A DNA stretch of 64,000 nucleotides from Cyanophora paradoxa CCMP329 (Eukaryota; Plantae; Glaucophyta). The number at the start of each line of letters is the position of its first letter. Position 1 is the first letter of the stretch. The stretch spans positions 124,001 through 188,000 of the forward strand of contig QPMI01000457.1 in NCBI GenBank assembly GCA_004431415.1. Direction: 5' to 3'. Shown piece by piece: positions 7,001-64,000 of this stretch. The notes beneath the pieces are model-generated. The model did not search any database and was not told the origin of the DNA. It saw nothing but the letters and a program-made list of their open reading frames with translations. Made by a program: the position numbers and the translations under genes.

Positions 7001-10000
7001 GTCCCGTCACGACCGCGCAGGCGTTCGAGGGGGAGTACCGGAAGAAGCTGGGGGGGGCGATGGCGGGGAAGATCGCGGGGAGCGGCCTGTGCGGCTCGCC
7101 CCTCTTCCTCCTCTCCCTGCTCGAGGAGCTCCGCCTCTTCGGCGTCTTCGAGCGGCTCGAGGCGCACCTCTCCGCCTGCCTCGCCGTCCGCGACGCGGCC
7201 GGCCTCTACGGCCGCATCCTCGAGCGCTGGGAGGCCTCCCACGCCGCCGTGCCGGTGCGGGAGCTCCTCGTCGCGATCGCGTGCAGCCGGGCCGGCCTGC
7301 ACGAGGCCGAGGCGCGGGAGCTCTGCGGGGCGCCGCCCCAGCGGGAGTGGTCGGCGTTCCTCTTCGAGGCGGGGCCCTTCCTCGCCTCGCACGCCGCCCT
7401 CCTCTCCTTCTTCCACTCCTTCCTCCGCCGCGCCGTCGAGGAGCGCTACGGCCTCGCGCCCGGCGGCGAGGGCCGCAAGGCCGCGCACGCCCGCCTCGCC
7501 GACTTCTGGCGGGGCCAGCCGCACGGCCCGCGGCGCGCCCACGAGCTGCCCGAGGCGGCGCTGCAGGCGGGGCGGCTGCGGGGCCTCGCGGCGGCCGTGA
7601 TGGAGCCGCCGACGCTGGCGCTGCTGGACCGCGCGGCGCGGCCCGACCTCGTGCGCTACTGGCGCGCCGTGGGCGAGTCGGCGCCGACGATGGCGGAGAT
7701 CTGCCTCGTGGAGCGCTTCCGCGTCGCGGCGCTGCTGCCGTGCCTGCCGGGCCTCCAGCCGGCCTTCACGGTCCCCCGCGAGCACAACAGCTACGCCGCC
7801 TTCCCCGAGTCCCTCGCGTCCGCCCTGCCCCGCCCCCGCCCCCGCCCCGCCCCGCCCTGCCCTCGACCGACCCGTGCCCCGCAGGAACCCGGATTCGTGG
7901 GACGGGTACCAGGCCTGGCGGCAGTTCGCGCTCGAGTCCGGGACGCTCCGGGGGATCGACTTCACGCGGGGGTACCGCATGGCGTGGGGCGACGGCGTGC
8001 GCTACTCGAACGGCGTCATCTGCGACCGCCTCTTCGCCTCGGACGGGCGCCTCCCGGACGGCTGCTTCTTCCCCGACGTGCCCGTCAAGTGCGCACAGGG
8101 GAACGACAACGGCGAGGCCCTCACCCTCGCCCGCCCCCTCGGCCTCTACGAGTACCACACCTGGGAGGTGCGCGCTGGAACACGCCCCGCTCGCGCCTCC
8201 TTTCTTCTCCGTTTTTCGCGCCCCTGACGCCGGCACGCCTTATTTGTGCAGAACCAATGGGCCAAGCGCGCCAGCCCGACCCCCGGCCCCTCTCAGCTCC
8301 CGTCCTGACCCTGGCCGCGGCCCGGGCGCAGCTCCGTGTCGTACAAGTTCAACCCCGACGACAGGCCCTTCTGGGACAAGGAGGCGGGGAAGCCGACGAC
8401 GGGGCAGCTCTGGGAGCGGATCATCGAGACGGTGGCGGGGCAGGTCGGTCCCCACCACGCCTGCGTCGCCGCCCTCTGCTTCAACCTCGGCTGGCGCCTC
8501 TGGAACGTGCGCCCGGCCTCCCCCTCCCCCCCCCCTCCCCCCCCCTCCCCCCCCCCCCCCCCCCCCCTTCAAATTTCTCAATTTCCACTCCGCCTCCGTC
8601 CCCGCCATCCCCCCTTCCCCCTTCCCTCCCTTTTCCCCCTCCCCCTTGATCCGCCTGATCCACCCAGGGCGCGCGTGCAGGAATGGGAGGCCGAGAGGGG
8701 GCTGCCGTGGCTGCAGCGCTGCGCCGCCATCCGCCTCGAGCACTACGTGCGCATGCGGCCCCGCCCAGCTCTGCCCGCCTTCTTCTCGCGATCGGCGTCA
8801 CCGATCGTTTGGCGGGCAGCCGGAGGCGCACGTGCTGGTGGGCCGGGCGCACGTCGTGCTGGCGGAGTGCTTGGAGGCGGCGGGGAGGCCAGAGGAGGCG
8901 GCGGCGGCCCGCGAGGTCGCTGAGCGGGCGCGCGAGAAGCAGGCCGCGCTGCTCCTCGACGCCGCCGCCTGGCTCGCCGCCGTGCGCCCGACCTGGCCTG
9001 GCTCGGCCTGGCTCGGGCTCTCGATCTTCTAGAGCTGATATCGATGTCGCTGCGGCCGAATCGCGATTCCGCAGATGGGCCGCCTGTTCATCTCGAGCGG
9101 GGACGCCCCCGCCAGCATCGAGTACCTTAGGAAGGCCGTGGACATCTACAACGTGCGCTCCCACTCTGTTTTCGCGTGCTTCAAAATTTTGCAGACGGTC
9201 CAAAATGCGATTTTCGCAGACGGTGGGGTCGGGCAGTGCGAACGAGCACGCGGCGGCGCACGCGGCGGCACTGGAGGCACTGGCGGAGGCGGACGGGCGC
9301 GGCGAGCGGGCCAAGCACCTCGCTGCCGCCCTCGCCCTCCGCGAGGCCGTCTCGGGCCCCCAGCACCCCGACCTGGCCCGCCCCGCCCCGCCCCGCCCCT
9401 CCTGCCCGACGGCGCCTCACACGCGCGCGCGGTGCACAGCTGCTGGCGCTGTGCGCGCTGGGGCGGCTCGCGACGGGCGGGAAGCGGGAGGACTACCTGA
9501 TGCGCGCCGAGGCGATCGCCGCCAAGGCGCTCGGGAAGGCCCACCCGCGGTGCACTCGGCCGGCGCCTCGAGCTTCTCCTCGCGCCCGGCCCGCTGGCCA
9601 CGGCCGCCCATGCGAGGGGATCTAAGGTACGCCGACGTGCTGGAGGCGCGGGAGGCGGGCGAGGCGGACGCGGAGAAGGCGGCGGGGCTGCTGCAGGCGG
9701 CGGTGCGGGTCAAGGAGCAGGCGCTGGGGGCCTCCCACTGGGAGCTCGCGGGGCCCCTCTGCGCCCTCGGGCGCCGCCTCTCGGCCCTCGGGCGGCACGC
9801 GGAGGCGACGGCGGCGGCGCGGCGCGGGCAGGCGATCGCCGAGCGCGCCTTCCCGGGGCAGCCGCGGGCCGCCGACGCCCTGCGGACCTCGGCCTCTGCC
9901 TCGCGGCCGCCGCGCTCGCCGCGGCGGAGGACCGCGCGGCGCTCGCCGCCGCGGGGGACGAGGCGCACGAGGCGCTCTCGCGGGCGCGGGTCGCGGTGCG

Positions 10001-11191
10001 GGCCGTCTGGGTCGGCTACCAGCTGCACAGGAAGGGCGGGGCGGACCGCGGCGAGGGCGCCGAGGCCGCGTACGCGAGCGCGCGGGTCGTCCTCGCCGCC
10101 CTCGCCGACCTCCACACCAAGCTCGCCGACGGTGCGCCCCGCTGATCGATCGTGAATTCAAAGCGAATTCGAATTCGATCGGGGGCAGCGTGGTGGAGGA
10201 AGCACGGGAGCAAGCCGCGGCAGGACTTCCACCTGGGGCAGGCGCGGGAGGCGGACCCGGCGGCCTTCACCAACTTCCAGAAGATGAGCGACCGCTTCGA
10301 TGTCTACCGGGAGGCCCCCGCCGGGGCGCACGCCCTCCTCGAGGACCCCGCCGCCGTCGCCCGCGTGCGCCCGTCTGGCGCAGCCTCTCGCGTTAATTAA
10401 TCTGCGATTAATATCGGGGCGCCGGCGCCGCGGGCAGGTGTCGGCGCACCGCCCCAAGGCGGCGTTCTGCGGGGCGTGCAAGGCGGGCCCGCTGCAGATC
10501 AACGACCTCTACTCCTGTGCCGAGTGCCCCCCGCGGCCCGGAGTGTACCTCTGCACGAGGCGAGAGCTTCCCCGCCCTCCTTCAGCTCCCCCCCCCCTTC
10601 GCCCCCACCCCCCCCCCGTCGCCCCTTCCCCCCCCCCCCCCCCCTTCCGTTCCCCCTGTTGACGGTGCAGCAGCTGCTTTGGGGGCAAGCCGGACCACGC
10701 GGAGCACAAATTTGTGCGGGTGCGCGTCCCTCCCGCCCGCAACCGGCGCCTTCGCGCGCGTCCCGACGGCCTGGGGGCGGCAGGTCGCAGACGTGCCGCG
10801 GCAGGTGCCGCCCGCACCGAAGGAGGGCATGAAGGCGCGGCTGCTGCCCCTGCGCACACGCCCCTCCCCACACTCCCGTCGGCCCGGCGGGCCCTGACAT
10901 GCACGTGGGCCGGCGGCAGCTGTGCACGCGGTGCGAGGCGTGGTTCGACCCGGGGGCGGCGGCGGGCTGCGCCAGCCACTCGGCGTACTTCATGAACTCG
11001 CGGGGCTGGGTCTGCTGCACGTGCGCCAGCGCTATCTTCCTCTCAATATTTCCTTCCTTTACTGTATAATTTCACTATGCAGGAAGCAAGGGCGGGACGC
11101 GCCGGGGTGCCGGAAGGACAGCCACACGGACGCGGCGCGGAAGTGGCAGCAGGACCCGTCGTACGGCACCTACACCTACGTCCCCGCTTGA
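4048..11191 (+). CDS. Host DUF4062-NACHT(STAND NTPase)-TPR protein (NPHP3/TTC41-like) with C-terminal Cys-rich (ZZ-like) fingers; many introns
   Basis: DUF4062 motifs VRIFLSSTFR-DMQRERD and DLRWG..CLSELDRC..GQRYGW; Walker A GRSGLGKS (~6230-6255); Walker B LIVVDSLDQ (~6617-6645); TPR-like helices 8800-10100; CxxC motifs 10460-11020; stop at 11191 followed by AATAAA at 11201. Confidence 0.8.
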
Positions 11192-11327
11192 CGCGCTGCG
11201 AATAAAATTCCGTATCGGCCTTTATATTAGCATTTTGTCCGTCATGTGGTTACGTAGAAGCATGCGCAGTGCACGCGGTAAAATACGACACGATGCATTG
11301 GCCATGGCGACAGAGACAGAAATTCCG

Positions 11328-14300
11328 CTAGAAGCGCGAAGCGATATTAATATTGCTTCTTGGCTGTCTATCACGTATGCGCTTGCGAGTCCACCACCGC
11401 CGCATCAGAACGACGAGTCCCACTAACGACGGTAACAGAAGCAGGAGGCCGAAAGTGCCGAACATGAGTGCGCCCGGCAGTATTTCTCGGTGCAGTACGC
11501 GTAGCTGGCTGGAGGAATAGAAGATCCCAGAGCGATCCAATACAAGTGCGGAAAAAGACCCTAATACGAAAACGAATCCCCAGATAAACAGACCAACTGC
11601 ATCAAAGAAGGTTCTTTGATCGTTGTGCGCGTTATGCTGAAGTAGGATCCTCTGGGCGAGAGCGACTCTCATTTTGACAGGCAACAAATCCACGACAGAC
11701 ATTCTATTCGATTCAAAATCAAATCGAATACATTATTCAATCAATTGAATGGATTTACGAACCCCGCTAGAACAAGCAGCGCTAGCGCCCCGCACGCGAA
11801 GAACAAGCTTTGTCCGAACTTCGACTGAAATCGACAAGTCGTCCAGAACCATAACTTTGAGCTCGACGCCGACGTCGACGTATTCGTTTGCGAGAGCCTC
11901 TCGAGACTGGCATTGACCGCAGCATACGCAGCGGTTATGGCGGTTAAATTCGCTTTCGGGGACGCCGTTCGACTTATGTTCGCGAGCTCGGCTTGATATT
12001 GCTTAAGACCGTCGATGTACGCTGCTTGCGCGGCTTGGTTTCGCTTGATACCGTCAATGTAGGCAACAGCATCTGAAAAGCTCGAGTTTGGAGATGAATC
12101 CGCAACGCAGATCACCGGGCCGTAAAAAGCGTGAATGAAATGGTCTACGTCCAGATTGAGTGTGGTTGCGTTCAGGCTTACGGAGAGTATGTAATTCTCA
12201 TCCCCCGAGAACGGCTGACTCCAAGATGACAGGTGAATACCGATGTAGATACATACCCCGCCAAAGATGATGAAAAGCATAATTCGAAGAAAAAATGCCA
12301 CAATGCTAAACACTTTCCTTAGAGCTCGCCTTATCGCTTCACTAGCTGGCTGATTCTGTACGGGATGGTGAGCATATTTGCATGTGCAACATTTGAGGCT
12401 CTGGATCGGAATCGGCACTGGCGCTGCACCTGAGCCGGATGTTCTGTTCTGTGACAATAAAGAAATGAGCCGGCCGATCGCGACGTCGTGCACACAAGTA
12501 ACTGCGCTTGCCACGACTTGTCCAGCGCATTTGTCTAACGGAGCAATCGCCTTCAAATTAAATTATGAAGGTGATCGCGACTTGACTTTATAAAGTAAGC
12601 AAGCAATGGGGACACCGTCTCACACAATCGGAAATCCACGATAGGACTGTCGTAGTTCAGCGTTTCGATTCGGCGGAATTCTATATTCGAATCATCGAGG
12701 CCGTTCGGCGTCGATTGTCTCAATATGGAGACTTTCCCGTCTGTACTTCCGCAGCACAGTACGTGAAATCGCTTGTCTGCGCGAGTCTGGGCGCGCCGCT
12801 CGTGATGATCAGGAACAGAAGCTTTTGAATCACATGCAGATGTCAAACACAAAAGCTGCGCATACTTGAAGAAAAGCAGTGGAGAGCGTTGAGATGACGT
12901 TTGAATGCACCTCCATTGTCGAAATAAGCTTCTCATTTCTCCGGTTCCAGACGTACGCCTTGCCATCAGACGCCCCTGCGAAAACATGCGCCTGCGCGAA
13001 GTTTTATATTCTCCTCAGCCGTATCGCGATCGGCCTTCATCTTTTAATACTCGCACCTGCGACAAAGCTAAAGCAGTGCACCGGTTAAGCGCAGGAATCT
13101 GCATCTGATGGCGTTTCGTGGATTTTCCCGGTTTCTTCAAGTGCAGGCTCCTTGCATCGAAAATCAAGACCATGCCGTCGTCACATCCAACCGCAAATTG
13201 CGTCTCTCCCGCTTCCTGAGGCTAAGCATGTTAATGGTATTTGTTTTTGTCGATCGCAAATAATTATAAATATCACTGACGACTGCTGCAGCTGTCGCGG
13301 AGGACAGACAAAGTCGCTGTGCGACCACCCCCGACACGACATCAAATATTGCAATATCGCCATCCGACTGGAGGGCGATGGCGTGCATGCGCCTTTTCTA
13401 CAAATTTGCAGATCGAATGCAGATCGAACTTTAATAATGACAAACGACGTCCAGAATGCACACAGCACTTGCCTGCGGTTTGTCGTCCAGGAAAGCGATG
13501 TTTGAAATCTCGCTCGAAAAGATGGGGTAATCCGCGTCGCCTATCTCTGTCCCAGGAGCGCCGTCCACGTTGATGCATCGAACCGCGGCTCTTCCGGTGC
13601 TCGTCCCGCAAACCAGCATACCGCCAGACTGCCGGATCACGATCAATTATCTCCTGCTTGCAATTATCTCCACGTGCACACCCGTGCGCGCACCTCTGAC
13701 ACTGCGATGCAGCACATTTCACCGGATGTGCGCCCGATAAGAATTTCTGCCCACGCAATCGCACGCCCAGATCTCCAGGCGAAAACGCGATAGCCGTCGG
13801 CATCTCCCAAGACGACCGTTGAACCCGCCTGCAAAAGTTATGTATATTATACTAAGTTATAACTTATTACTTATGACGCATGCGGACACCCGTAAAAAAA
13901 CTCAGTCTTCACGGGACGGCCGAGCCAAAAATCCTCGGTAGTTTGATTGAGGTCAGAAAACTTACCTTAGGGTTGTGTCAACGCATATGAGAACACAGTG
14001 TGGCATAACGTAAATTACATCAGAATCACAAATTAAATTTTGACTTCAGATTTACAGTTATTTACCGCGCTTATTCTCGAAAATCTGCTGCGATAACGCC
14101 AGATCGACACATTACCCCAAGTGAAACTAAACTCAAAATGTCAGCACGTTAATTTAATTAAAAACCGCAATTTTAATTTTGCCCAGCCGCGCGCGGATCG
14201 AAATCGATCGATCGAAAACCGGTTCCAGTTTGGGTTTTAAAGAAATTTAATGCATGCCACATGGATTCGCAGTCGTAGTGCGCGCCTGTTGTAAAGGGGA

Positions 14301-17300
14301 GGACCCCCCCCCAAACCAGACCGCCCCCAAAGTCTGGTTTTACCTTCAGGGATCCACCCCTTCTAGCGTCATCAATTAACGATTTCCCTGAAAACAGTTA
14401 GACGTGCCAATTAGGCGTGTTGTTCGCTATATTACAGATTCATTGTTAGCTAGGCGTGTGCAAGTGTAGCTTTGGATCTGTTGCGGATATATTAAGTTAG
14501 GTTGCTTGAGGGCGCGATAGCTACTGGCCATGGGCCACACTTGCTTGTGCACGGTCTGGTTTGGCCTCAGGAGAGAGTGTCAGCTAGCTTGCGTAGCATT
14601 TGACTCACAAGAAACCTAGCTGATTTCCGAATCCATCGACGTCGACTGAAGCTAGCTTGCATAGCCTTTGGCTCACAAGAAACCTAGCTCTAGAAAATAC
14701 TCTCAGAAAGAGAAGTAAGCTTTCTTTTTCTGTAGACACTTAAGCGATCTTTGGCCTTCTTTATGAGTTCATCAACATTCTCGAGTTCTACTATTTCACC
14801 CTTGCACTCTTTCAGAAAGAGTTCAAAAAAGATCATATCTCTGTCTGAAACGTAATTCTTTTGGCCAGCCTGATAGAGCTTAATTTCCTGAACTTTCCTG
14901 GCATTTGTGAAAATGTAAACCTCTGCAGCCCGCCAGATACAATTGCTATATAACTGTGGCAAATATGGTTTGGTGCCTTTCATGCAGGCATTTTGGAGAA
15001 CATTTAGCGAGATATCGCCTTCAAACCTTGGTATGATGATAGTTCGCTCCCCGTTGTAGTTGTCCCAGAATCCAGGTCGGCCCTGTGGCCATGCTGTGTT
15101 AAAACCACGATGTTATGTAATTAACGTATACATTCCAGGCCTGCAAACCATGCCATCTCGCACGCAGTAGGTATTAGGAGGCAATGAGTTCAACAAAGTT
15201 TGGATGACAGGTTCAGGTGCTCCACCTGGGCAATGGTTACAGCGTGCACAAAATAGTGATAAGCGGTCAAACCTACGACAAAATAAATCGTCGTGTATGA
15301 GGACTTGTCCGGTGAGTACATGCAATATTTATACTGTTGATCCCTCTCGTCACGGAAATTGCCAACAGGAAACATCCTCTGGAACTCTGCAAATGACTTT
15401 CCACCTAGTCAACATCGTGATCAAGTTAGATGGAAGCACAGCACGTGGTTGCGAAAAGAACTACCATGGTACCTGCTAGAAAAGTTTTCATGCGTTGAAT
15501 AAATTGTACGTGGACTTGAGAACGACCTGGGTGGTCCAACTGTATACTGGTCGTTAATATGCACGCGCACATGGCAGGAATAGAGAATTAAAGTACCGTT
15601 CCAAATGCAAAATATCCGGGATGGGCGCAATTCACGTCAATATTCCGAAAGCAATCAAGAAAGTCCCGTTGTTGGCGTTCTTCGATTCGAAGTACAGTTG
15701 GGGCATGGCCCATAGCACGATAATCTTTGTCGCTGAATGCGCGTTCAAGCATCAACTTCATAAAATTCAGCGATTTCTTGTGGTACGTAGTAATGTATCC
15801 CTGTCGGGCGTTAATGGGGCCGGGGTGACGTCGGGCCACATGGATATAAATGAAACACGTTTAGGCAAACCTTGATGATGTACTGGTTCTCCTGGTCTGT
15901 ATAAAAAACCCGGAATTCAGCATACTTTACTTCCTCCTTGCATTGCCCGTTATTTTCGAATACTTTGCGAGTTGAGCGGAAGCATCGTCTCCAGACAGAT
16001 ATGTCGGCAGGCTCATCCCGCGTAAATTTCTCAAATGTGAAGAAGTGGCGTTTGCGTATGTTAGGATCATCCGAGCCATAGCCCTTAAGAGTAATGGTGT
16101 AAGGCATATATACTGTTGCAGGTTTGAGTTAGTGCACATACGCACACACATATATAAGATACCGAATTGGACACCTGTGCACGTGGGCGTCGATCGACGT
16201 CTAGCGTTTGCGAGTATGTGTGCACGTCGCCAGTGCCTGTGTAATGTATGTATATATCTGGTATACGTAGAACCAAAGCGATATCGTGAGCCACCATCAT
16301 GGCATCGGACGCACCGTATCGCAGGCGCTAGCTACTGGTACGCGGGCAGTAGCCTTGGTGGCCGGCGCCAGTGCTACTACCGAGAGCAGTCTCAGCGAGC
16401 TATGCGCGCTACTGCGGCTACTAGGCTAGCGCGGCACTACTAGGCTGCGGCACGCCCGCGCCTCGCGTGTACTACCGTAGTACGGTACTAGTTTACTCAG
16501 TGACCACGCTATCAAAGCCTATCATAGTATAGCCTGGTACTACGGTAGTAGCCTCAGTACGGTACTAGCCTGGTACCGGTATATAGCTACTAGGCTATCA
16601 TCAGCCTGACAGTAGCCTATCGGCGCGCGCGTCTCAGTCTATCATCGCATATCGCCGTCGATTCGCCGAGTCTACCGGGCTATCGCCGTACTACGGTAGT
16701 ATACTACTAGGCTAGCGCCATACAACCAAATCCGAGTCAAAATGTACGGCGAGTTCGAATTCTCGCCGCCGGACCGTCGCCGAGTCGGACCCGGGGCCTA
16801 GCCTAGGCCTACTGTAATTCGGGTAATATTTAAGGCGGCCCCGTGCCTAGCCTCGTGATAATTCGGTAATAACTACCGGTAGCCTCGTGGCACGTGCCCG
16901 GCGGCCCCGGCCACGGGTGCACAACCGTTGAACCGTTGAACTTTCGGAACTTCGCTGACGTACCGTCGGACCGTCCGACGGTCGGACTGAGCCTGACTCG
17001 CCGCGAGTCGGTGAGTCGGAGGCGCGCGTGGCCCGCGGACTGTAGCAGGGCATCGAATGCCCAGAGGTTGTTGAAAGAATATAAACCATATCAGGGCATC
17101 GAATGCCCAGAGGTTGTTGAAAGAATATCAGGGCATCGAATGCCCAGAGGTTGTTGAAAGAATATAAACCATATCAGGGGCATCGAATGCCTAGAATACT
17201 AAAGTTGCTTTTTATAACCTCTGGGCATTTGCAATTGCAATACCACAATCGCAACATTAATTTGTACAAAAGTTGATTTTAAACCCTTCCACAATCGCAA

Positions 17301-20300
17301 CATTAATTTGCACAAAAGTTGATTTTAAACCCTTGTCAATGCCTAGAATACTGAAGTTGATTTTTAAAACCTCTGGGCATGCGTAATATTACAACATTAC
17401 AATGTTTGCAATGTTTGCAATGTTGAAGATTTTGGACAGGAAGTTATAAAATTTATATAATAAATGGCGCCCGCAGACTATATAATGACTCTAATAATGG
17501 CGCCCCGGCGAGCGACTAAACAATTACATAATAAACCTTTAGCACTGAATTCCCCAACTTACGTCAATTCCCCAATTTACGTCAGTTCCCCAACTTACCG
17601 TACCGCAGCGGCACAGTTTGCAAACTGTTGATTGGCTAGATCGGCAAACCCTGAATTTGATTTTTGATTGGTCGCAACCGTTTCACTAAGCGATTCACGA
17701 AATATGTAACATGTATATGATATGTTTGGGGCCTGGCGATTCATGTTCAGGCCGGTACACGTACTAGGTTTTGATTGGTCGCAACCGTTTCACTAAGCGA
17801 TTCACGAAATATGTATATGATATGTTTGGGGCCTGGCGATTCATGTTCAGGTCGGTACCCGTACTAGGCTCGGCGAACACGAACCCTCACGATTCAAGTT
17901 CAAGCTGCGAAAAAACCAACTGGAAGAAAACAAAAAAACACGAAAAGTGAGTACAAAAACAACCAATCGCAAATGCCGGAGGTTTCACAGTCGCGGGCCA
18001 TGGGGCGCCGATTGCACTACTGCGCGGGCCTGCAAGGTAGAAGCCTAGATTGCATGGCTTAGAGGTTTCCTGCACTCTATCTAGCAGTCAGAGATTGTTG
18101 CGCTGAAATCCGAAATTAATTTCAGTCCCTCTTCTTGGAAGCGCATGCAATGGCCAGCACTGCAGCACTTAAGGCCGAACTTAGAAATTTAGCGACAGAA
18201 CTTTATGATCGTGGATATGTTCACGGGACATTTCGAAACAAACTGATGCGCCTGGCGGACGCTAGCAGCGGGACCTGGGGCCGAACGATTCGCAAATATA
18301 TAGCAACACTGCTGCGACTGCGGAGCACGATTCGCCCAGCACGCCGCTTATATGAAGGCCAGCTCGCAGGCCATTTTGGCGCAATTGCAGCAGCTCGCGC
18401 AAACGCGGTTCAGGCCGAGGAGGCGATACTGGAGGACGTACCTAATATATTCCAAGATGTTGAAGAAATTCCCGTGCCACGAGATCTGGATGGGGTGCTC
18501 TCTCACAGGCACCACCGCTATCCGAATTTACTATTCGATAAGCACGTATATGCAATCGAGCCCAGTTTCGATCCGGAGTCCGTAAAGAATTTAACGATTG
18601 ACATCCTCGGGCAGCTGGGCGTTGCGGAGATGATAGGGCGATTTGTGATAATCCGGTTCCGCTTTGACAATAATCACATGTATACGACCCAGCTAATTCA
18701 AATCAGACAGAACGGGTTGCAGACTTTGACTGAGAGTTTAGATGAGCGGATTGCGCAGTGGATGTCAGCGCAAATGTCATATCAGGAGGACGATATTTGG
18801 GTGGTAATATTGATCGAGGTGTTAATTGCAGACAACGCGGCTGGCGCCCTAGGCAATGTTCCGAAATTGCCATTTTATCATCGGACAGTCGATAAGCTAT
18901 ACTGCCCGATGTCCCCAGCGAATGACTGCGTGCTCGAATGCTTTGAGTACGTTAAATTAGATCCACGCGGACTGAGCCTGAAGACAGTAATCGAAAAGCT
19001 GGCGAAGGCACCCTATGCATCTATTCGAGAGCGGCTCGGACTGGGAAAGGGCATGATATCTCTTGATCGCAGCACAGTAGAAGCGATCTGCGGAATATAT
19101 TCGATAGATGCAACTGTGACGGAGTGGGCAAACACGAAATTCAAGGAGCTTTTTCGAACCCAGTTTGATTATTCGAAGCGTGCAATTCTCTGCAACATCG
19201 ATGGGCATTGCTACCTGATTAAAAAGGAGGCGACACTAGGTCTGGAGCGGTGCCCTTGCTGCGGAAAGATGTTTGATTTGGCAACGCATGTGGAGCAATG
19301 CACGTTCTGCAATAACTGCAAACGCGCGTACGACCCCAGAAAAGATCATTCATCAGAGTGCCAGGAGATGACGCGCCGTCAAAACGTGATCGGGCGGCAG
19401 ATCAAGCCCTGCAAACCGGAGACAGAATTTACAGCGTTGGACAGCGTTGTCTGCGCGGATTTTGAAACGTTTGCTGCCAACGGCAAGACGCACGTTCCAT
19501 ATGCTGTCAGCTATTGCATGATTGAAAAAGGGGAGGTCTCGCCATGCGAGCTAATTTATGGTGAGCAAACGTTGGACTTGTTCATGCGCTGGCTTGAGCG
19601 CCGCAGCGAGAAGACGACGTTGGTGTTCTACAATGGGTCTGGCTTTGACTATATATTTGTCTACAAATGGCTCGTGTTAAATCGACCGAATACAGCATTA
19701 AACGTTCTGCGGTCGAACGGCAAGATCAAGAATATGTCGTGGAAAACGGCTGCAGGCGGGCCTATAAGTACGTTTGATCCGTGCCTGCACATCCAGGCTT
19801 CGCTCAAACAGGCCTGCAAGGACTACGGCTGCACTAACGTAAAGGGAGATTTTGATCATAGCAAGATTAAAACGTGGGAGGACGTTGAGCGCTTTAAATC
19901 TGAATGGGAGCCGTACGTGGAAGACGACGTTAAGGCAATGACAGAGCTTTACATTAAATATTCGACAGCAGTCTTCGATCTGTACGGCTTAAACGTGAAC
20001 ACAACGCAAACAACCACAGCTTCGGCAATGGCGTTCCAGATTCATCGGCAGACGTTGATCAATCCAATTTCGCTACCGACCTACAAGGATGATCAGGTGC
20101 TGCGCCAGGCAATATATGGTGGACGGTGTCTCCCATTTAAACGCAAATTCGTCTCATCGGGCCCGGATGATTATTTAGTCGACCTGGATGTTGTAAGCTT
20201 GTATCCGACGGCTATGTACGAGAATTGGTTTCCAACTGGAAAGTACAAGCATATTACGTCGCCCGATGCGCTGGACAGATTCTGCAAGATATTACAATCG

Positions 20301-23300
20301 AATCAGCGTTCGTTGATGTTTATTGCGTGCGTGGACGTGACAATTCCGCAAAATCTGCTGCTCTCTCCGCTGCCACGGCACGAATCTAATCTAGGCTGGT
20401 CTAATCTCAAGCCAATTGAGCGCGGTTGGTATACGTCAGTCGATATTAATCGTGCAATTAAACTGGGATGCGAGGTGACGAAGGTGCGCGAGGTCTACCT
20501 GTTTGACGGTAAAGATCAGATGTTTAAGACCTACATGGAGCGGATGTACTGCCAGAAAGCTAGATCTCGCAAGGGAACAGCTCCGTATGCGACGTCAAAG
20601 ATTTACATGAATGGCCTTTACGGTAAATATTGCCAGCGGCCTGTGATCACAACCTCGGATCTGGTCACATCATACAAGCGATTTCGAGAAATTCAGCGAT
20701 CAGCGCAGATCACAGACATTTCGATCGAATCAGACACGCGGATGTTTGTCACGTACGAGATTGAGGAGTCCAAGCGTGATAGAGCTGTCACTAAACCGTG
20801 CTTTATTGGCGCATTTATTCTGTCATATTCGCGGGAGATCATGGACAGGTTTCTGATTGAAATAGGCGCATACTGGAGCATCGATGCAATGCCGTTTTAT
20901 ACTGATACGGACTCTTTGATTGTCCATCGAAAATACGCTGATCTGCTGCGGGCAAAAGGTTATATGAAGCCAGCATATGATATAGCGACGGCAACAGATG
21001 CGGACATTTGCAGGCAGGAACTAGGGAAACTTGACTGTGACATTAAAGGGCGGATTGTGGAAGCGTACTTCATTGGGCCGAAGCTTTATACGTGTTCATT
21101 TGTACGTGACAGCGACGCGCAGCTTGATCTGCATGTACGCGCAAAGGGGATTCCGCAATCGTGGATCCAGGAGCACTGGCTACCAGACGAACCAGAGGAG
21201 AGGAAAGGGGCCCTCGACCGCAGGATCGCTCTGGATGCTTACAGGTGCATGCTCGAGGATCCCACGTACCAACCCAAATGCACAATCGAATCAAAGCTGG
21301 CCCGTGTTTATAAACCGAACGGGCGGCAACGGGAGAGCGGAATCAGCTTTAGTTCCATGATCCAAATTCCGTTCGCTCGACAGCTGAACAAGTCGCAGTA
21401 TACAAAGCGCAAGATAATTTCGGACGAATACTATAGTAGCGTCCCCATGAGTACCGCGCAGGCGAGCCGAATTAAGCAAGCTTATTACGATCCGGAAACT
21501 GGCTTTCAGTCTGCGGCGAGGATAGCTAAGCGGCTCAATTTACCGCTATCAAGAGTGCAGGACGTACTTTCAAAATTGACGACTGCGCAGCGTTTTGCGA
21601 AACCTGTAAAGGAAAAGCCATCGACCAGCATAATTTACGGGGAGCCCGAAAAGTACTACGAAGTCGATCTGATTGATGTGACCCCGTACGCGAGAACTAA
21701 TCGAGGGATTACTTTTATTATGAACGGTATCGATGTGACGACGCGCAAAGCGTATAGCATCCCTATGAAGACGAAATCGGAAAGCACTCTGCTAGCCAGT
21801 TTGAAGAAATTGATTGATGCACTCCCCTCGAAGCCGGACGTCATTCAGACAGATCAGGAGTTCAAAGGAACCGCAGCAACAATGCTAGCGAGTATGGGCA
21901 TCAAGCATAATGCAGTGGAGGCGCATCGCCCGCAAGCAAACGGCAAAATAGAGAGATTTAATGGTACGCTTAAGCGCATCATTGCAAAGTACATGGATGC
22001 GTACGACACGGACAGATATATCGATAAGCTGCCTGCTTTCTTGCGCAATTATAATTCGTCAGAGCATAGGTCAATTGGTACGTCGCCGAACGCTGCAGCA
22101 GAAAATCCGAAGGAGACAATTGCACGCAACGACTACCAGAGAGAAGCGTACGAGCAACAGCACTATTTTGCCCAAGCGGAATTTAAGGTAGGCGATCGGG
22201 TGCGAGTGCAGCTAGAGCGGCAGCGTTTCGACAAGTCTTCAAAGCCGACGTATTCAAAAGAAATCTATACGATCACGGAGATAGGTGGCTTTGGACCGCT
22301 GCTCAAATTTACGCTTTCGGGCTACGACAAAGCGGTGACCTACCAGCGACTATTGAAAGTAGCGGCAGATTCAGAGGAACGTCGTGCGGGCAATGCAGCA
22401 CAGCGGGCACAGCAGCGCAGGAAGAAAGAGATTAATCTAATGCAAGAGAATCTAGACAAGAGTGATATAGAGAGAGCGCGCAAACTCGAGCGTTTGCAGA
22501 AGCAATTGTTGACTGCAGGTAAAGAGAAGCTGAACCCAGGAGGGGCAACACAGAGATGGTATTCGTCGTTCCAGAATAAAACTGCAGCGTACTCAGCCCC
22601 TGGCAATACGCGAACTCTCCGCCCACGCGCGTGAAAAAGAAAGTGAGCCATCTTGGCTTTCTCCTTCTTTCGCTCCCCTCTTTTTACTTATTGCCGGCCA
22701 TTAGAGAGCTATAACAATTGTTTGTTGGAGGGACTCTAGCAGTGCTAACTTTTCGTAGATTCGATTGCGATAGCGGCGATTGGCCTCCAGATGGCCCTCA
22801 CTGTTATTGCGTTGATATTTCAGACTGGCTTCGATGTGACGTCGCCGGTAATCAGGATCTTCATTGTACCTGCGCCGATGGCTCTCGGCTCGCTTGGCCT
22901 TCCGTGCCGCAGCGATTTCAGGGGTGACAACAATTGGCTTGCGGCCTGGGCGCTTTGGCGATGATTCGGCATCCATATTTGCGGGTTTCTCGTCACAAAC
23001 AAGGAGCGAAATAATTTTATGGCATCAATCGCAGAACGACCAACTGCGTTGGATTTCGAGAATTAAATCCGAGATATAATTAAAACAATGCCAGCAACGA
23101 TCCGATTCGGCAAGTATCGAGGGGAGACGCATCTGGAGGTTGTTTACAGGGATCCAAAATATGCAGAATGGTTAATTTCGTGGCCGCATTTGCGCCCATA
23201 CGATAAGCAAAAGCTTGAGCGTGCATTCGAAATGTGCCGCACAATAGAGGGCTCTGAGCTTAGGAAGATGATTGACTTCGCAAAGCAGCAGCGACGTCCT

Positions 23301-35300: not shown

Positions 35301-38300
35301 CTACTCACTGGGCTCCCCAGCCATCCATATGAGGCAGCATGAAGTTAGCGATGCTATTGCGGGATTAGAGTCCACTGAGCGTCCAAACTCAACTAATGCA
35401 TTTGATCAACGATCTGTGATTCGGTGTAAAGAATTGCGAGCAGATAAAAACTCTGGGGTTGTAAAAACAACGCGATTATTAGTCACTAATGCAAATTTTT
35501 CCCAGCCCATAACAGGGGGAGTTGATTCGTACAGTGTTGACCTCCGAAGCATAAACTATGATCAAAACACTGCTGCCCTCACTGTGCGCTCCGGGGGAGC
35601 AGCTATTACTGGAGCTTGCCGTGTTAGTGGAGGACTATCATCATCGATTGCCATCAATGATGTTCCAGACTTTTCATTAGAGAATGTCGAAAATCGTAAA
35701 CGAGTTCGAATGTACTTACCTTGCTGTGACCTCCCCTATGCACAAGCTCTAGTAGAAGTTGAGATAACCATAGCAAATTCAAGTACACCAAATGGTCTGG
35801 ATGGTGAGAGGCTGCTTTCAAACAGAGAAATACCGAAGGCGCTTCAATCACTCTGTCAGGATCAAAATGATCAGATAGGGCATGTGTATACGTTCTTTGT
35901 GCAAGGCCTTGGACACGCTGGACGTGGATACGTTGTTCGTAATATCAATTCAAGACATCTTTTTGATTTATATGCTACTGCTATAGGCAGATACTCTATC
36001 CTAATCATCGGCTATCGCTCCGATGTAGCTGCATCAGTGGCCACTAGAGGACTGAACCCTGATCCGGCACTGAATAATATGTATGAGGAAGGCAATCCGG
36101 AAAATCCTATACCTTAAGTGGAAAGTTTTATCTCCTGTTTTCTAAAATGGAAGCTGTTGAAAGAATTGTTGTTCCCTCTTTGACACTAGCAGCCCCAGCA
36201 AATCACGTCCTGCAGCATGCTGTCTCAGACGATGTCCCCGGCCTGCAATCAACTGAGCAGCAGCCAACTCTAAACACCTTCCGAGATAATCACATCATAC
36301 GTTTAGGAGAGGTTAGATGCGACAAAAATAATGGAGTGGTCAAAACAACAAATCTTGTCGTAACAAACGCAAACTTTAATGCGCATTATGGGGATCCTGA
36401 TAGCTATGATGATGCTAACAAGGTTCACACTTTTACCTATGAATCAAGATTAGGGGCTGTTACCTGCAGGTCCGGAGGTGCTTATATTGGAGATGGCCTG
36501 AGAGTGGGTGGAGCTGCTTGCGCCCCTATATTTGTAAATGATCAACCTAACCCTGAAAACACTAATGAAAGAATCAGAACGTATGTTCCCGGTATGAATT
36601 TGCCTTATATCATCAAAGTCTTCACGCTAAACATAAATGAGCAAACATCGATCGTAGATAACGTTCAGCCACTCGGAATCCATTTCAAGAGTGTTGTTGA
36701 TATTCCCCCGGATATCTACTTCCTTTGTAGGAGAAACGATGCTCTCCGGCCAAACATAGCTGTTTTAATTAATCCTATTGACAATTTTGGTGTCGCTTTC
36801 CATTCTACTCCAGTGGGGGTTGAAGATTACCAGTTTATTGTGAGGGCTACGCTTATGGGCGCCTACAAAATCATTCTATTTGCCGAAAGAACAGATGTGA
36901 TTGCAAATGGTGTCAAGTACGGGGAGACCTTCAATTCGAATCGTTATTTCCCGATTGGAGGGGCTGATCCCAACCCATAGAATCTTTGTTTTATATATAG
37001 CCCATACTAGATGGATTTGCTCCGTAAATGCATGGAGATGTTCCATCTCAACGTCACCAGCAAATTGAAATGCAGCTGCTGCGAGACAACTATTAACCTC
37101 GAAATATCTGACACTGAGGGGTCGCGCACCCCTGATACTCAGCTATCGCCTAATAACACACCCGGGACTTCAAGGTCCAATTCTCCTTTTACACGATCCG
37201 ACTCACCTGTACCATGGCTTGATTCTGATAACCGAAGATCGTCTTGGCCACCCCCAAATATCCCAAAGCCCCTGAAAAGAAAGAAGTCCCTGCTATCAAG
37301 TTTCAGAAAGGAGAAGCAACCAGCTGCAGATCAAGTGGAATGAGGCTGCGGCCTCTGAATCCGCACTATCAGCGCACTATCAGCGCACTATCAGCGCACT
37401 ATCAGCGCCAATCTTTTGTGTGTCACGTATCTCACCGTTTTCTCGCCACGTCACGTCACGTCACGGCGTCACGTCACGGCGTCCGCAAAGTTTTCTCGCG
37501 AACTTGACCCTCCGAATTAAAACAATTAAAACAAAAGAAAGGTGAGCTTCTGCAGCTGTTCAGCTGTGGTGCTCCAGCTGCATCAGCTCAAACCTGGAAA
37601 GCTCTGATTGCAGTGCTAGCTCTAGAATCGAAGAGATCCTGAGCAAGCACGAACTCCAGAAGTTGAGGCACAGACAAGCACAGGCAAGATACTCACAGAC
37701 ACCGCTAGGCAAAGAAACAAGGGTGCGCTCTGAGCAGAAAAGGAAGCAGAAGCTCTCACCTCAACGCCTAGCATCTAAAGCCATGTCTGATCTGTCAACA
37801 CCAAGAGACGGAATGCAAGTCGATTCCGTAGACCAACGAAACGCTGTTGCTGAGCGAGATCTACATAGCCTAAAGAGAAAGATCCAGCATCGCGAGAAAA
37901 AGGATCAAAAACGGCAAAAGCGACATGAATTCGGAGCTATGTGCAAGCAAATCACGGATCTAGCTTATCAGAAACTCCGAGGACTGGAGCAAATGAATCA
38001 GAGCATTACTGACATTATTGTTGCCTGCAAAGTACGTGCAATGTCTACCGATCCTAGGCCTGCTGCCTGGTAACGTTTCGTCAGGCCGCAATCGACAATC
38101 CGTTGTTTGACAGCACAAAGACTAAGAGCGTCCTTGATTCGCTGAAGACGAAACTGGAAGGATTTGACATTGACGAAGACGATGGGTTGGACAGCTGCAG
38201 TGATTCCGATGTCTAAAGTGGCAGCTGTCCACACTTAGCATAGGCTGTTCTCTTTATGTAGAAGTACACTTGCACACGCCTAGCTAACAATGAATCTGTA

Positions 38301-41300
38301 ATATAGCGAACAACACGTCTAATTGACACGTCTAACTGTTTTCAGGGAAATCGTTAATTGATGACGCTAGAAGGGGTGGATCCCTGAAGGTAAAACCAGA
38401 CTTTGGGGGCGGTCTGGTTTGGGGGGGGGTCCTCCCCTTTACAACACGCGCCAAATGCGTGCGGAGTCAACTGCGGACGCGATCGTAGTACTACGGTACG
38501 TGCACGTGCTCGCAAATGCAAATGATTGAGCCGATCGCGACGTCGCAATCGCGAGCCCGGGCCGCGACGTCGACTTTGACTAGGACTCTTTCAGTGAGCT
38601 GTCGGGCAACTTCTATAAAACAAATTAAATTAAAATCGAATCGATCCGATCGACGATCCGGTACCCCTCGGCCTTCGCCAGTACCAGACTACTACTACCA
38701 GTTCGATCCGATCGGACGTACCGGATTTTCCTTCACTCAGGTTGACGTGTCACAGTGTGTCACCGCGGGTACCGGTAGGCGGCGGTAGCGCCCGGCGCGC
38801 GGCCAAGCGCGCAGCGGCGCGCTGCGGGCCTGCGGCGCGCGCTGGCCGCGGGCCCGTGGCCGCCGCCACGCGGCGCCGTCGACGTCACGGCGTGGCGCGA
38901 GCCGCGCGACTGTCGCGTGAGTCGAGTTTTTCCCAGCAGTTTAAGCTGGCCAGTGGCGTGCATGGAAAGTGGCAGATAACGGAAGTAACGGAAAGTGGCG
39001 GACCCGAGATAATTATAACGGACGTTTCCGGAAAGTAACGGACAGCTTAAGTGGCGGATAGCGAAAAGTAACGGAAAGTAACCGAAACACACTGCAGTCC
39101 GACGGTCGACGTCTAGCTGCAGGCCCGCTGATCATGATTCGAATTCATGAGCAGCAGCAGCAGCGGTCGTTGCTGCAGTTGCGCTTATATTAGCAACCGC
39201 GTACATACTAGCGCTGCTGCGCATGCTTGTGCAGACGGAGCACTGCGGCGCATCAGCAGGTGAATTCGAAGTCAACGCAGCGATTGCGATCGCGAAAGCA
39301 GTGATCCTGATTTTGTCGAAGCCGCTGCTTATAAGCACCCGCTCCGGATCGTGAAGTGCCCGGCGGCCGCGAAGATTATTCGAATTCTTTTGTCCTGAAA
39401 AAGTCCGTCGTTCTGGCAAACTGCGCAAGATTCGAAATATATAATAGCTAATTGGAACAGTTCCGATCTATCGCTAGATCTTATAGCTCCGCTTCCGAAG
39501 CTCAAGATCTGAGAGTCTAGATCGAGGTCGGCGCGGCCGACTCGACGCGTATGGCGCTGACGTCAACGCTGCGCGTTTCTCGATTGAAGTTCAGCTGCAG
39601 ATCTAGATCTACGTATACATGCTTCGAATTCCAGATCGCGAAAAAATTCATTTCTGCATGTAAGTTTCTTTCGAATTCGCGTGCGATCGCTATAGCTATG
39701 TCCGACGGTCATGATATCGATCATCAGTTAATGGGGGGGTGCGGGGGGGCTTGCCCCCCTGCTTGTATCAGGAGCCGATGAAGTGCAAACGTAGGTGTCT
39801 TTAATTGTATTTTATCGATTGCATGCGCACGCTTGTAACGGCGAATAATGGGCGAGGCCGCGAAAGAACACATTGAACAGGACGTCCGCGCAAAAGAGAT
39901 CGATGTCCATGTGCTCGAGGGAACTTTGCGTCTTCTATATTAACCGGCCAGATCTTCAGTTTAACATCCGGATCCTTCGATAGAACAAACGCTTGACGCG
40001 ATCCAGCATGCAGCTGCGCATCTTATTTAAACCGCGCTTTTAAAAGAGCATTCTGATTTAAATTCATTAAATAATTTATAATTACGTCAACGTTCTACCT
40101 TACCTCGTTTTCGTTAGCGATCTCGAGAAGTTGAGCTCGATTAGGAGACAGTTTATGGTACTTTGTGGCAAACCCCTGAAAACATGCAGCCTCCGCGAAC
40201 AGAGCCATGTCAGACGTCGACTCCCTTGCCCATACACGACACGTTTGGTCTTCGGAAGCTGAAAGAAAGCTATTGCCATCCTGCAATAAAACGGTTTCAA
40301 TTCTACTAAAACATGAAAGGCATTATTGGGGAAGGGAAAATCACTTCCCCTGTCCCTGTCCCTCGGGCCCAACCCTACCCCAAATCCCATTTCCCCGACC
40401 TCCGCAAAACCCGGGCCGCGCGGTACATGCTGAAAGCCCATCCCCAGGGGACCCCGAAACCGTGTCTCCCGGTCCCGTCCGACCAAAGGGTGATCCAGGA
40501 ACAGGCACCAACACCCGGGACAAAAAGGGGTCCAGCGAGGCACATGGAGCAGATATACGGGCCGGACCAGTTCGAGGTCAATGCTTGCATTATGCCCGAC
40601 ATTCCGTACTGCAAGAGCGAGGCCGGGCGCGAGCGCGGTCGCGTAGGAGGACGCCGCGCGTGCTAGCCAATCGCATTGGAGAGTGCGAACTTACCCTGCG
40701 GAAAGTCTTTTTGCGGTACCCGCACGATCTCCTGCGTTCGCTGCAATGAGCCTCCCACGCTCCGGCCGCCCGAGCGGCAGCGGCGGCGCGAAGCCACCGC
40801 CGGGCATCGCCATCGGAGTCGATATCGAGCCGGCCAGCAAGCCCTGCAGTCAGCCAGGCTGCGGCGGATCTAGGCAGAAGTACGGCGGCAAGTGCCTGCA
40901 CTGCGGCCAGCACTTCTGCACGAGGGACGCGCTTTACAGTCATGTGCTGCGATGTAGACATCCGGCGGCAAGCAGCGCAGCCGTGAAAACCCGGGCAGCT
41001 GGCGCCCATGGCCACGCGTTCAGCGAGCGGCCTGAGTGCGGGGACTGTCAGCAGAAGAGCAAAGCCACCGGCAGCAAAGACGTGTGGGGCTGTGACCTCT
41101 GCGCTGCCCACTTCGTGCGCTTCGGCCCGGCGAAGGTGGTGGCACACCACGCAACTGCATCCTGTGAAAAGAACCGCTTACGTGGTACGCGGTCATTATG
41201 CTTTCGAAGCGTTCGAAACTTACCTTTTCGCTACGTGTATACGCTGTCGCAGATGAGCCGGAGCTGCAGAGCATCGCTGCGCGCGCGGAAGCCGCGCGCG

Positions 41301-63600: not shown

Positions 63601-64000
63601 GCGCGCGTGCGCACGCGCCCGTGAGCGCGGCGGCGGCGGCGATCGACTTAGCCGCTCGAGCTCCGCGCCGGATCCATGTTAACACTCGGCTTGATCATGA
63701 CGTATGCGCCGTGCGGGGCGGGCCCAGGCGATCGAAGCAAGCAAAGAGGTAGATAGCCTTGAGACGCACCTCTAGCTGGCCCAGTGCCGACGGCGTCGCG
63801 CTGGGGGACCTGGTGGAGGCTTGAGTGGCGACGGCCGAGCTCCCGCCCGTGCGCTGCGTGGAAGTGGGTGGCTCGATCGTTATCTGGGGCTTTAGAGAGT
63901 TCTGTTGTGCTGGTTTCGGCGGCTCGCAGGCGTCGAACTGCACGACAACCTCTTTGACAGATCTAGAGCTGATCGCAACGTGCCCGTCACGGCGCAGGCC
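57698..64000 (-). CDS. Second host DUF4062-NACHT-TPR protein (5' end may lie outside the window)
   Basis: VARVFLSSTFQDMQAERD, DLR|WGISDE..CLREVARS..GRYGW, SVTEIEIRAG; Walker A GDGGSSKS; VVLVVDGLDQ; kinesin-light-chain-like TPRs (LGPDHPDVA, LGESHPSTA). Confidence 0.8.

Follow-up and report, generated by a model that had tools for sequence, protein, structure and literature searches.

The apparent polymerase-integrase fusion in the window (the whole stretch of 64,000 nucleotides analyzed here) is probably a misread, and it is not the state of the family to which the element belongs. The evidence points to two neighboring and overlapping genes, one for a protein-primed family B polymerase (pPolB) and one for a rve (DDE) integrase, joined in the window by a C run that is one base short, probably through a consensus error of the assembly. 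The original prediction had described one frame running from pPolB directly into the integrase, and this is what the window holds: the forward-strand frame from 18150 to 22634 is open throughout its 1494 codons. Its interpretation as a self-processed PR-Pol-IN polyprotein or a tethered replicase-integrase did not withstand the comparison with sequencing runs, all eight of which have five Cs at the junction, and with relatives, none of which is fused.

The element and its genes

The two genes lie in an element of 24,160 bp, which has 182-bp terminal inverted repeats (TIRs), is flanked on both sides by the same 6-bp target duplication, and is a Polinton-type endogenous DNA virus, its host being probably a glaucophyte alga (Table 1). 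Capsid candidates of fitting size adjoin the ATPase gene and have no sequence-family match: the putative major capsid gene has no match in Pfam, PHROG, or PDB sequences, and the two putative minor capsid ORFs match no family. The second of these is a candidate by an N-terminal motif of its product. No ORF scanned in the element has a Pfam match to an adenain/vUlp1 maturation protease, a search that a remote homologue might escape. In the flanking host DNA, 5 of the 50 ORFs scanned match TPR, DUF4062, or NPHP3-like families, none of which is a lineage marker.

Table 1. Coordinates of the element's features in the window.
Feature	Position	Strand	Evidence or remark
Target-site duplication, left, CGCGCC, 6 bp	14281..14286		Identical to right copy
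Left TIR, 182 bp, begins TG	14287..14468		2/182 mismatches to right repeat
pPolB gene as implied by the runs	18150..21475	+	TP - vOTU - Cys-rich stretch - exonuclease - palm
Terminal-protein (TP/D1) domain, aa 127-228	18528..18833	+	AlphaFold2 pLDDT 74-89
AAGALG linker, aa 230-235	18837..18854	+	Low-pLDDT linker between TP and vOTU domains
vOTU cysteine-protease domain, aa 243-365	18876..19244	+	Model pLDDT 87.9, pTM 0.82
rve (DDE) integrase gene with own ATG, 395 aa	21447..22634	+	Starts at Met1100 of the fused frame
A32-like packaging ATPase	23974..24717	-	Pfam Pox_A32, E 3e-9
Putative major capsid protein gene, frameshifted at 25812-25814	24780..26167	-	Suggested by size and position
Putative minor capsid protein	26243..27199	-	Weak match to L005 ORF, E 1e-4
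Putative second minor capsid protein	27227..28117	+	Weak match to L019 ORF, E 0.008
Patatin-like phospholipase with C-terminal extension	28109..29593	-	Pfam Patatin, E 3e-25
Fibre-like protein, two phage-tail repeats (PTR) and weak H-lectin end	29618..32791	+	PTR E 2e-7, H_lectin E 0.04
Four paralogous fibre-like genes, two with C1q-like ends	32811..36980	+	First carries short G run 33857-33859
Right TIR, ends CA	38265..38446		Pairs with left repeat
Target-site duplication, right, CGCGCC, 6 bp	38447..38452		Identical to left copy

Domains of the polymerase and the integrase

The TP-vOTU-pPolB architecture, which is already published, is supported here by domain matches and models. Pfam DNA_pol_B_2 (PF03175) matches at aa 485-903 (E 5e-50), and the best solved relative is 1xhx, a DNA polymerase of 575 aa (E 4e-23). 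Residues D437, E439, D680, D919, and D921 are invariant in 71 sequences, and the exonuclease and palm motifs are intact. The best structural matches of the TP domain model are little-finger domains of the Y family (Z 8.5-9.7, rmsd 2.8-3.2, 93-100 residues); eight Y-family polymerase chains take ranks 1-8, as expected of a D1 domain of the little-finger/PAD type, and the Foldseek search by itself produced no E under 0.001. By the position rule of PMC11161782, Ser210/Tyr211 (18777-18782), placed by the model between helix 2 and strand 4, are candidate linking residues.

The intact Cys/His pair of the original prediction corresponds to Cys260 (18927) and His353 (19206), conserved in 151 and 153 of 160 relatives, respectively, the remainder being gaps. 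The structure prediction that had been proposed for this region returned an OTU fold. Re-examination of Foldseek's list for the model gave OTU-domain entries in 50 of 50 rows (Z 7.4-8.8, rmsd around 3-4, some 100-117 residues), and an independent wide structure search also retrieved OTU structures, with Z up to 8.4; a Z of about 8 is moderate when taken alone, and the best Foldseek E is 0.006. Sequence searches were less telling: Pfam has no match for the window's OTU domain, and of 30 aligned relatives, five matched Peptidase_C39, one otubain C65, and two C36. The PDB profile match, to a 187-aa segment of a viral L protein, is weak (E 0.1-0.2); this segment, a vOTU, ranked below two designed repeat proteins in one PDB search. 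In the atlas, the OTU part matched only unnamed clusters.

The small-residue site noticed upstream of the protease, AAGALG, aligns with the GG[C/S] of relatives, 29 aa ahead of Cys260. In 66 of 70 relatives, a Gly-Gly motif (here Ala-Gly) precedes the vOTU cysteine by about 29 residues. It likely marks the TP cleavage site, with self-cleavage predicted from the alignment after Gly232; our literature search for a diglycine in pPolB listed no paper on such a motif.

The integrase is retroviral-like. Pfam rve_3 matches at aa 1250-1310 of the fused frame (E 1e-7), and the DDE residues, as had been claimed, are present: they align with those of the foamy-virus integrase (E 3e-7) at D1173 or D1176, D1235, and E1268.

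The C run at the junction

The run at 21443-21446 has four Cs in the window and five in publicly available sequencing runs from this organism. We compared 8 of the 20 runs containing the sequence (seven sample codes, from 2012, 2019, and 2024), which may represent few strains and may include the window's own source. No RNA data set is among those listed as containing the sequence, which has no bearing on its expression. All eight have an extra C inserted behind 21442, in every case matching the local depth in full (59.2/59.2, 768.4/768.4, 177.9/177.9, 585.7/585.7, 365.1/365.1, 613.1/613.1, 524.6/524.6, and 536.1/536.1), and in each the sole contig covering the junction carries five Cs. These data are contigs, from which rare variants are dropped, and the extent of the contigs beside the C run lies outside the matches listed.

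In the five-C form, pPolB stops at a TAA at 21473-21475 and overlaps by 29 bases with the integrase gene, whose ATG is at 21447. The frames can be joined by a one-base loss only within the 58 bases from 21418 to 21475, and the C run is the only run of at least four in that interval. The length of this run in sibling copies had been set beforehand as the test of the fusion, and all eight runs gave another length and separate overlapping genes. A homopolymer error had been anticipated as well: its kind was right, its direction was not, since the runs read CCCCC rather than CCC. The ATGA stop/start overlap expected from the removal of one C is arithmetically possible but is not what the runs show.

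Two other short runs in the same copy resemble the junction. All 4 runs compared at the G run 33857-33859 have an extra G there, again at full depth. In the putative capsid gene, an intact relative of 456 aa (P0022) aligns in two frames (75% and 60% identity) that meet at the G run 25812-25814. Since this frameshift is absent from the indels listed from the runs (threshold of 60 in 100, with many short contigs at that place), its evidence is one protein relative. The other large genes of the element have no in-frame stop. The three one-base losses in short G/C runs look like homopolymer consensus error, and false frameshifts have been described for assembled multi-copy endogenous viruses (PMC10120064).

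Polymerase and integrase in relatives

None of the 160 related polymerases has an integrase match, while all five rve proteins in the same set do. Most of the related polymerases (151 of 160) end at most 30 aa from the profile end, which is where the window polymerase meets the C run. After the terminal Pro, the five-C frame reads His-Glu-Tyr and the fused four-C frame Met-Ser-Thr. Of 131 relatives with Pro at that place, His follows at +1 in 17 and Tyr at +3 in 66, whereas the residues of Met-Ser-Thr are outside the six commonest at each of the three positions. As a counterpoint, the Gly conserved at +2 (104/131) is Glu in the five-C frame.

Among the 109 related loci listed, 22 have a rve integrase, which in 20 follows immediately downstream of pPolB in the same orientation and in none shares its ORF; these loci include the best 80 of 146 from a metagenome scan and some partly redundant pairs (e.g., L044/L047, L033/L036, L104/L107), so that 20 and 22 overstate the independent cases. 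In the best-matching locus listed (L030), the polymerase and the integrase are overlapping separate genes, and the integrase start in the window matches the stand-alone starts of the loci listed. Two related polymerases with tails of integrase size (P0142 and P0166) were considered as natural fusions and rejected, their tails having no integrase match. The viral_contigs set has no close relative of the whole ORF or of the integrase. Our searches of open-access literature listed no pPolB-integrase fusion or frameshift; the fusions named in the available text of PMC10748475, PMC13215967, PMC11071296, and two bioRxiv preprints are with helicase and primase only.

Alternative explanations

It is also conceivable, if rather unlikely, that the four-C allele truly exists, though in no copy but this one, which would have lost a C after its integration, and that the fusion is an accident in a decaying provirus whose capsid gene is broken too. 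Short homopolymers slip in vivo as well, the window differs from the majority at about one letter in 100 (share of words 0.69-0.75), and its TIRs differ at two of their 182 bases. Contigs cannot show absence: a true four-C allele private to this copy would be invisible in them because they drop rare variants, and several other window substitutions (e.g., at 18254) are likewise missing from every contig. On the other hand, each of the three one-base losses falls in a short G/C run and the large genes carry no nonsense change, which has the look of a systematic read error. The 39 best-supported substitutions listed within the ORF fall in 35 codons, of which 20 are silent, and create no stop. We infer that the base was lost by error rather than by mutation.

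With five Cs in the template, a low-rate +1 slip of the ribosome at CCC-C might still yield, in addition to the two single proteins, a minor TP-vOTU-pPolB-integrase product. Slippage by +1 is known for the CCC-C context, and the integrase frame is in +1, right after a Pro codon that has a C next to it. It has been proposed that pPolB and DDE integrases are functionally linked at genome ends (bioRxiv 10.64898/2026.10.13.758929). If true, the slip would keep the integrase attached to genome ends capped by protein, and a DNA virus would retain five Cs for a Gag-Pol-style recoding that couples its protein-primed replication with its integration. We consider this very improbable. Of the 20 related loci listed, 4 have an integrase frame that stays open in +1 across the polymerase stop and one has it open in +2, while in 3 it follows the stop in frame; in 12, however, a stop separates the two frames. 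Recoding is not conserved among these loci, though a signal specific to this family is conceivable. Moreover, the integrase begins with an ATG of its own, placed as in stand-alone integrases, the C run has no stop or obvious pause codon behind it, and the only nearby heptamer of the -1 type (21273) is in-frame, with stops following in the other frames. Least credible of all is a conserved TP-protease-polymerase-integrase polyprotein cut by the vOTU in the manner of retroviral Pol. Such a polyprotein would bear on TP removal and on the hand-over of ends to the integrase, an open question in PMC11161782. The open frame, the intact OTU fold, and the presence of other C-terminal fusions in the same polymerase clade (P0142, P0166, L016) speak for it. 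Against it stand the five Cs in every run, the absence of one conserved reading frame among the 160 proteins and the 22 loci listed, and a polymerase-integrase border without a small-residue site. A weaker point is that a search for longer relatives of the integrase gave, among 6111 candidates, only two retrotransposon polyproteins. Two overlapping genes and a lost base remain the preferred reading, and they carry a caution: in a multi-copy endogenous virus, one base lost in a stretch of 58 is enough to make a convincing fusion of 1494 aa.

Predicted mechanism and comparison with known systems

With two separate genes, the polymerase would prime replication on the Ser or Tyr of its own N-terminal TP domain, and the vOTU domain would release the TP by cleavage at the Ala-Gly/Ala site (aa 231-233). 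The TG...CA ends and the 6-bp duplication are the likely traces of an insertion of the linear genome by the DDE integrase, translated as a protein of its own.

The element resembles Polintons/Mavericks and the Polinton-like viruses (PLVs) of protists (Preplasmiviricota) that have a pPolB and a rve integrase. It shares with them a 15-30 kb insertion with TIRs and a 6-bp duplication, an A32 ATPase, putative capsid genes, and a phospholipase, as well as a GC drop relative to the host, a pPolB (PF03175), and a separate rve integrase gene (PMC10120064, PMC12220804, bioRxiv 10.64898/2026.06.19.733378). As a possible difference, no adenain/vUlp1 was found among the ORFs scanned, and with a capsid that matches no family, its class may be Polintoviricetes or a PLV group. 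The likeness extends to endogenous PLVs of Cyanophora paradoxa: the sole database relative of the putative capsid is labelled with this species, a protein with two PTR and an H-lectin occurs in a Cyanophora paradoxa PLV, and patatin fusions occur in glaucophyte PLVs (PMC12220804). Adintovirus-like PolB/integrase contigs have been mentioned in the species (PMC8502044).

Fusions of pPolB do exist elsewhere. The pPolB-SF1 helicase of Tlr1 and transpovirons and the SF1 helicase-pPolB of the Oxyrrhis OmPLV (PMC12721341) are likewise large pPolB-based proteins, some 1500 aa long, but they occur in many copies and with a helicase as partner, whereas the window fusion is in one assembled copy only. 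The order protease, polymerase, DDE integrase in the window frame is that of retroviral/Ty3 Pol (PR-RT-IN), and the integrase core is homologous; the element, however, has a cysteine OTU instead of an aspartic protease, a DNA-dependent PolB instead of an RT, and, in the runs, a separate integrase.

The closest parallel for the polymerase itself is the TP-vOTU-EXO-PALM pPolB of Krupovic et al. 2024 (PMC11161782), which has the same succession of a little-finger/PAD TP and an OTU fold, the OTU Cys on the first helix and the His on the last strand, and the same structural neighbors (PolIV little finger, OTUD2 4BOZ). Proteolytic release of the TP is a hypothesis in that work, whose available text names no cleavage motif. 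The small detail that remains from our analysis is the motif ahead of the vOTU cysteine, Ala-Gly-Ala in this element and Gly-Gly-Cys in most relatives, as a likely site of this cleavage.

Junction between the polymerase and the integrase

The window contains an uninterrupted frame of 1494 codons in which a polymerase domain is followed by an integrase core (see table). Translation of this ORF confirmed the landmarks of the original prediction, i.e., Cys260, His353, the AAGALG stretch and Met1100, and a foamy-virus integrase aligns with the integrase part across all three acidic residues. Yet a polymerase-integrase polyprotein is not a feature of the family: the public sequencing runs have two genes, and none of the relatives examined is fused to an integrase.

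Twenty public runs of one organism contain 69-75% of the sampled window words, and we compared the junction in eight of them (7 sample codes; years 2012, 2019, and 2024). In all eight, a single contig at 21442 carries one extra C at full local depth, so that the C run (21443-21446) has five bases instead of the four of the window; the three Cs suspected originally were not found. The frame then reads His-Glu-Tyr-Arg-Ala-Gly-Glu-Pro-Asn before a stop at 21473-21475. Hence, the polymerase ends nine codons on, and the integrase starts from a separate ATG in the +1 frame, overlapping the end of the polymerase gene by 29 bases. Losing one base can join the two frames solely within 21418-21475, and this stretch has no run of four or more bases other than the C run.

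Table. Features of the element and of the ORF under study.
Feature	Position	Strand	Remarks
Element carrying the ORF	14287-38446		24,160 bp
ORF	18150-22634	+	
DNA_pol_B_2 domain	aa 485-903 of the ORF	+	
rve integrase core	aa 1250-1310 of the ORF	+	
Putative major capsid gene	24780-26167	-	
Four paralogous fibre-like genes	32811-36980		
Fibre protein			Two phage-tail repeats (PTR), weak H-lectin end; encoded in element
A32-like ATPase			Encoded in element
Patatin			Encoded in element

The joined frame might instead reflect a genuine deletion private to the copy in the window, which we consider rather improbable. Rare variants get lost in contigs, several substitutions of the window are likewise absent from every contig, and the four-C state is known from one assembled copy, the sequence bridging the junction in contigs not having been seen. 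However, one-base shortfalls occur at two further short G/C runs. At 33857-33859, all four runs examined there have one more G than the window, at full depth. The putative capsid gene switches frame at a three-G run (25812-25814), where the intact relative P0022 (456 aa; no Pfam, PHROG, or PDB sequence match) continues, matching in two tblastn segments of 75% and 60% identity. This frameshift is seen solely against P0022 and is absent from the indel list of the runs (threshold 60 in 100), at a place where thousands of short contigs overlap. The other large genes of the element have no in-frame stops. With losses limited to G/C runs, a consensus error fits better than decay, and PMC10120064 describes spurious frameshifts in assemblies of endogenous viruses that are present in many copies.

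Gene organization in related polymerases and loci

In a profile search, 17,876 proteins passed an E cutoff of 0.001; we examined the best 150 of them together with 10 from another search. None of these 160 polymerases matches the integrase of the window or a profile made from it, while all five rve proteins in the file searched do. Most (151/160) stop no more than 30 residues away from where the profile ends; tails exceed 100 residues in five, and none is an integrase. A Pro near the C-terminus is shared by 131 of 154 relatives, and the residues after it are mostly x-Gly-(Tyr/His/Phe). With His-Glu-Tyr after the Pro, the five-C frame agrees at +1 and +3, but not at +2, and the fused frame (Met-Ser-Thr) lies outside the six commonest residues at each of the three places.

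Among 109 related loci, 22 have an rve integrase, directly behind pPolB on the same strand in 20 and in the same ORF in none. Close coupling of the two genes is the rule in the clade, and fusion was not seen among the relatives examined. In L030, the best-matching locus, they overlap as separate genes, and the ATG at 21447 corresponds to the place where integrases begin in other loci. The frame relation varies among the 20 loci (a stop lies between the frames in 12, the integrase frame is open in +1 in 4 and in +2 in 1, and in 3 the integrase follows the stop in frame), and therefore no recoding signal is conserved.

A terminal protein (TP), a vOTU protease and pPolB with a separate rve integrase is a known architecture, and Polinton-like elements have already been published for the likely host; this one may already figure in supplements of the cited papers. 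Our searches of an open-access library listed no pPolB-integrase fusion. A real one would be new, but is not supported by the evidence here.

Two related proteins, P0142 (tail at aa 1379-1751) and P0166 (tail at aa 1634-2007), and a related locus (L016:8320-9435), which may be the source of P0142, have a complete TP-vOTU-pPolB with a C-terminal tail of ~370 aa. We take this tail to resemble a primase of the archaeo-eukaryotic type that ends in a zinc-binding Cys/His part; it matches a PHROG "primase" weakly (E 0.03) and no Pfam family. As it occurs in two proteins from different clusters, the pPolB-primase fusion is probably real.

TP and vOTU domains

The region aa 127-367, modelled from a 30-sequence alignment (pLDDT 80), is predicted to form two domains with a linker of low confidence (aa 231-245) between them. 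Little-finger domains of Y-family polymerases take ranks 1-8 among the matches to the first domain (Z 8.5-9.7, rmsd ~3); the second resembles OTU domains of both cellular and viral origin (Z up to 8.4). Modelled alone (pLDDT 88), the second domain had only OTU-domain entries among the matches listed (best Z 8.8; best Foldseek E 0.006). Its putative catalytic pair is conserved, Cys260 in 151 and His353 in 153 of 160 relatives, the remainder being gaps.

In 66 of 70 relatives, the Cys is preceded by a GG[C/S] motif at a distance of 25-41 residues (median 29). The corresponding site of the window, 29 residues ahead, reads Ala-Gly-Ala, and here a diverged sub-family seen in the runs differs at silent positions only. 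OTU enzymes cut after the Gly-Gly of ubiquitin, and by analogy cleavage is predicted after Gly232. The two domains correspond to D1/TP and D2/vOTU as presented in PMC11161782, where cleavage between them is proposed.

The element, its likely host and a possible life cycle

The element has a GC content of 46%, against 71-73% in its flanks. It has terminal inverted repeats of 182 bp, with two mismatches between them, TG...CA ends, and a flanking 6-bp duplication (CGCGCC). DNA synthesis could be primed by the TP domain on Ser210 or Tyr211, after which the vOTU would release TP at the linker. The linear genome would be inserted by the separately made integrase, which the ends and the duplication fit (PMC12220804). 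Particles would be built from the ATPase, capsid, and fibre gene products.

The putative capsid genes match no family in Pfam, PHROG, or PDB sequences, and P0022, labelled Cyanophora paradoxa, is the only relative that the databases returned for the putative major capsid protein. The PTR-PTR-H-lectin architecture of the fibre also occurs in a Polinton-like virus of this glaucophyte alga, as reported in PMC12220804. Hence, the host is likely Cyanophora paradoxa or a relative. The fibre-like paralogues have a common N-terminal region (~130 aa, 31-48% identity) and different ends, two C1q-like and two without assignment; they are likely an enlarged set of fibre or receptor-binding proteins.

Around the element, 11200-14280 and 38453-40400 have ~50% GC, against over 70% in host DNA further out, and the element may be nested inside another mobile or viral one. 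Host genes with DUF4062, NPHP3-like, and TPR domains lie on both sides (3150-10155 and 57900-63700), in opposite orientation. In the left arm, short pieces with frame changes along them (14690-16107, minus strand) look like a decayed gene; they have no Pfam or PHROG match, and may resemble a CRESS-type Rep or superfamily 3 helicase. Upstream of pPolB, ~1.7 kb without long ORFs (16400-18140), a possible regulatory region, has short tandem and direct repeats at 17043-17179, 17243-17330, and 17651-17870. Over 18000-37300, the runs contain several sub-families. Their contigs are 80-95% identical across the polymerase and much more numerous at the structural genes than at polymerase and integrase, which suggests that related elements share the capsid module.
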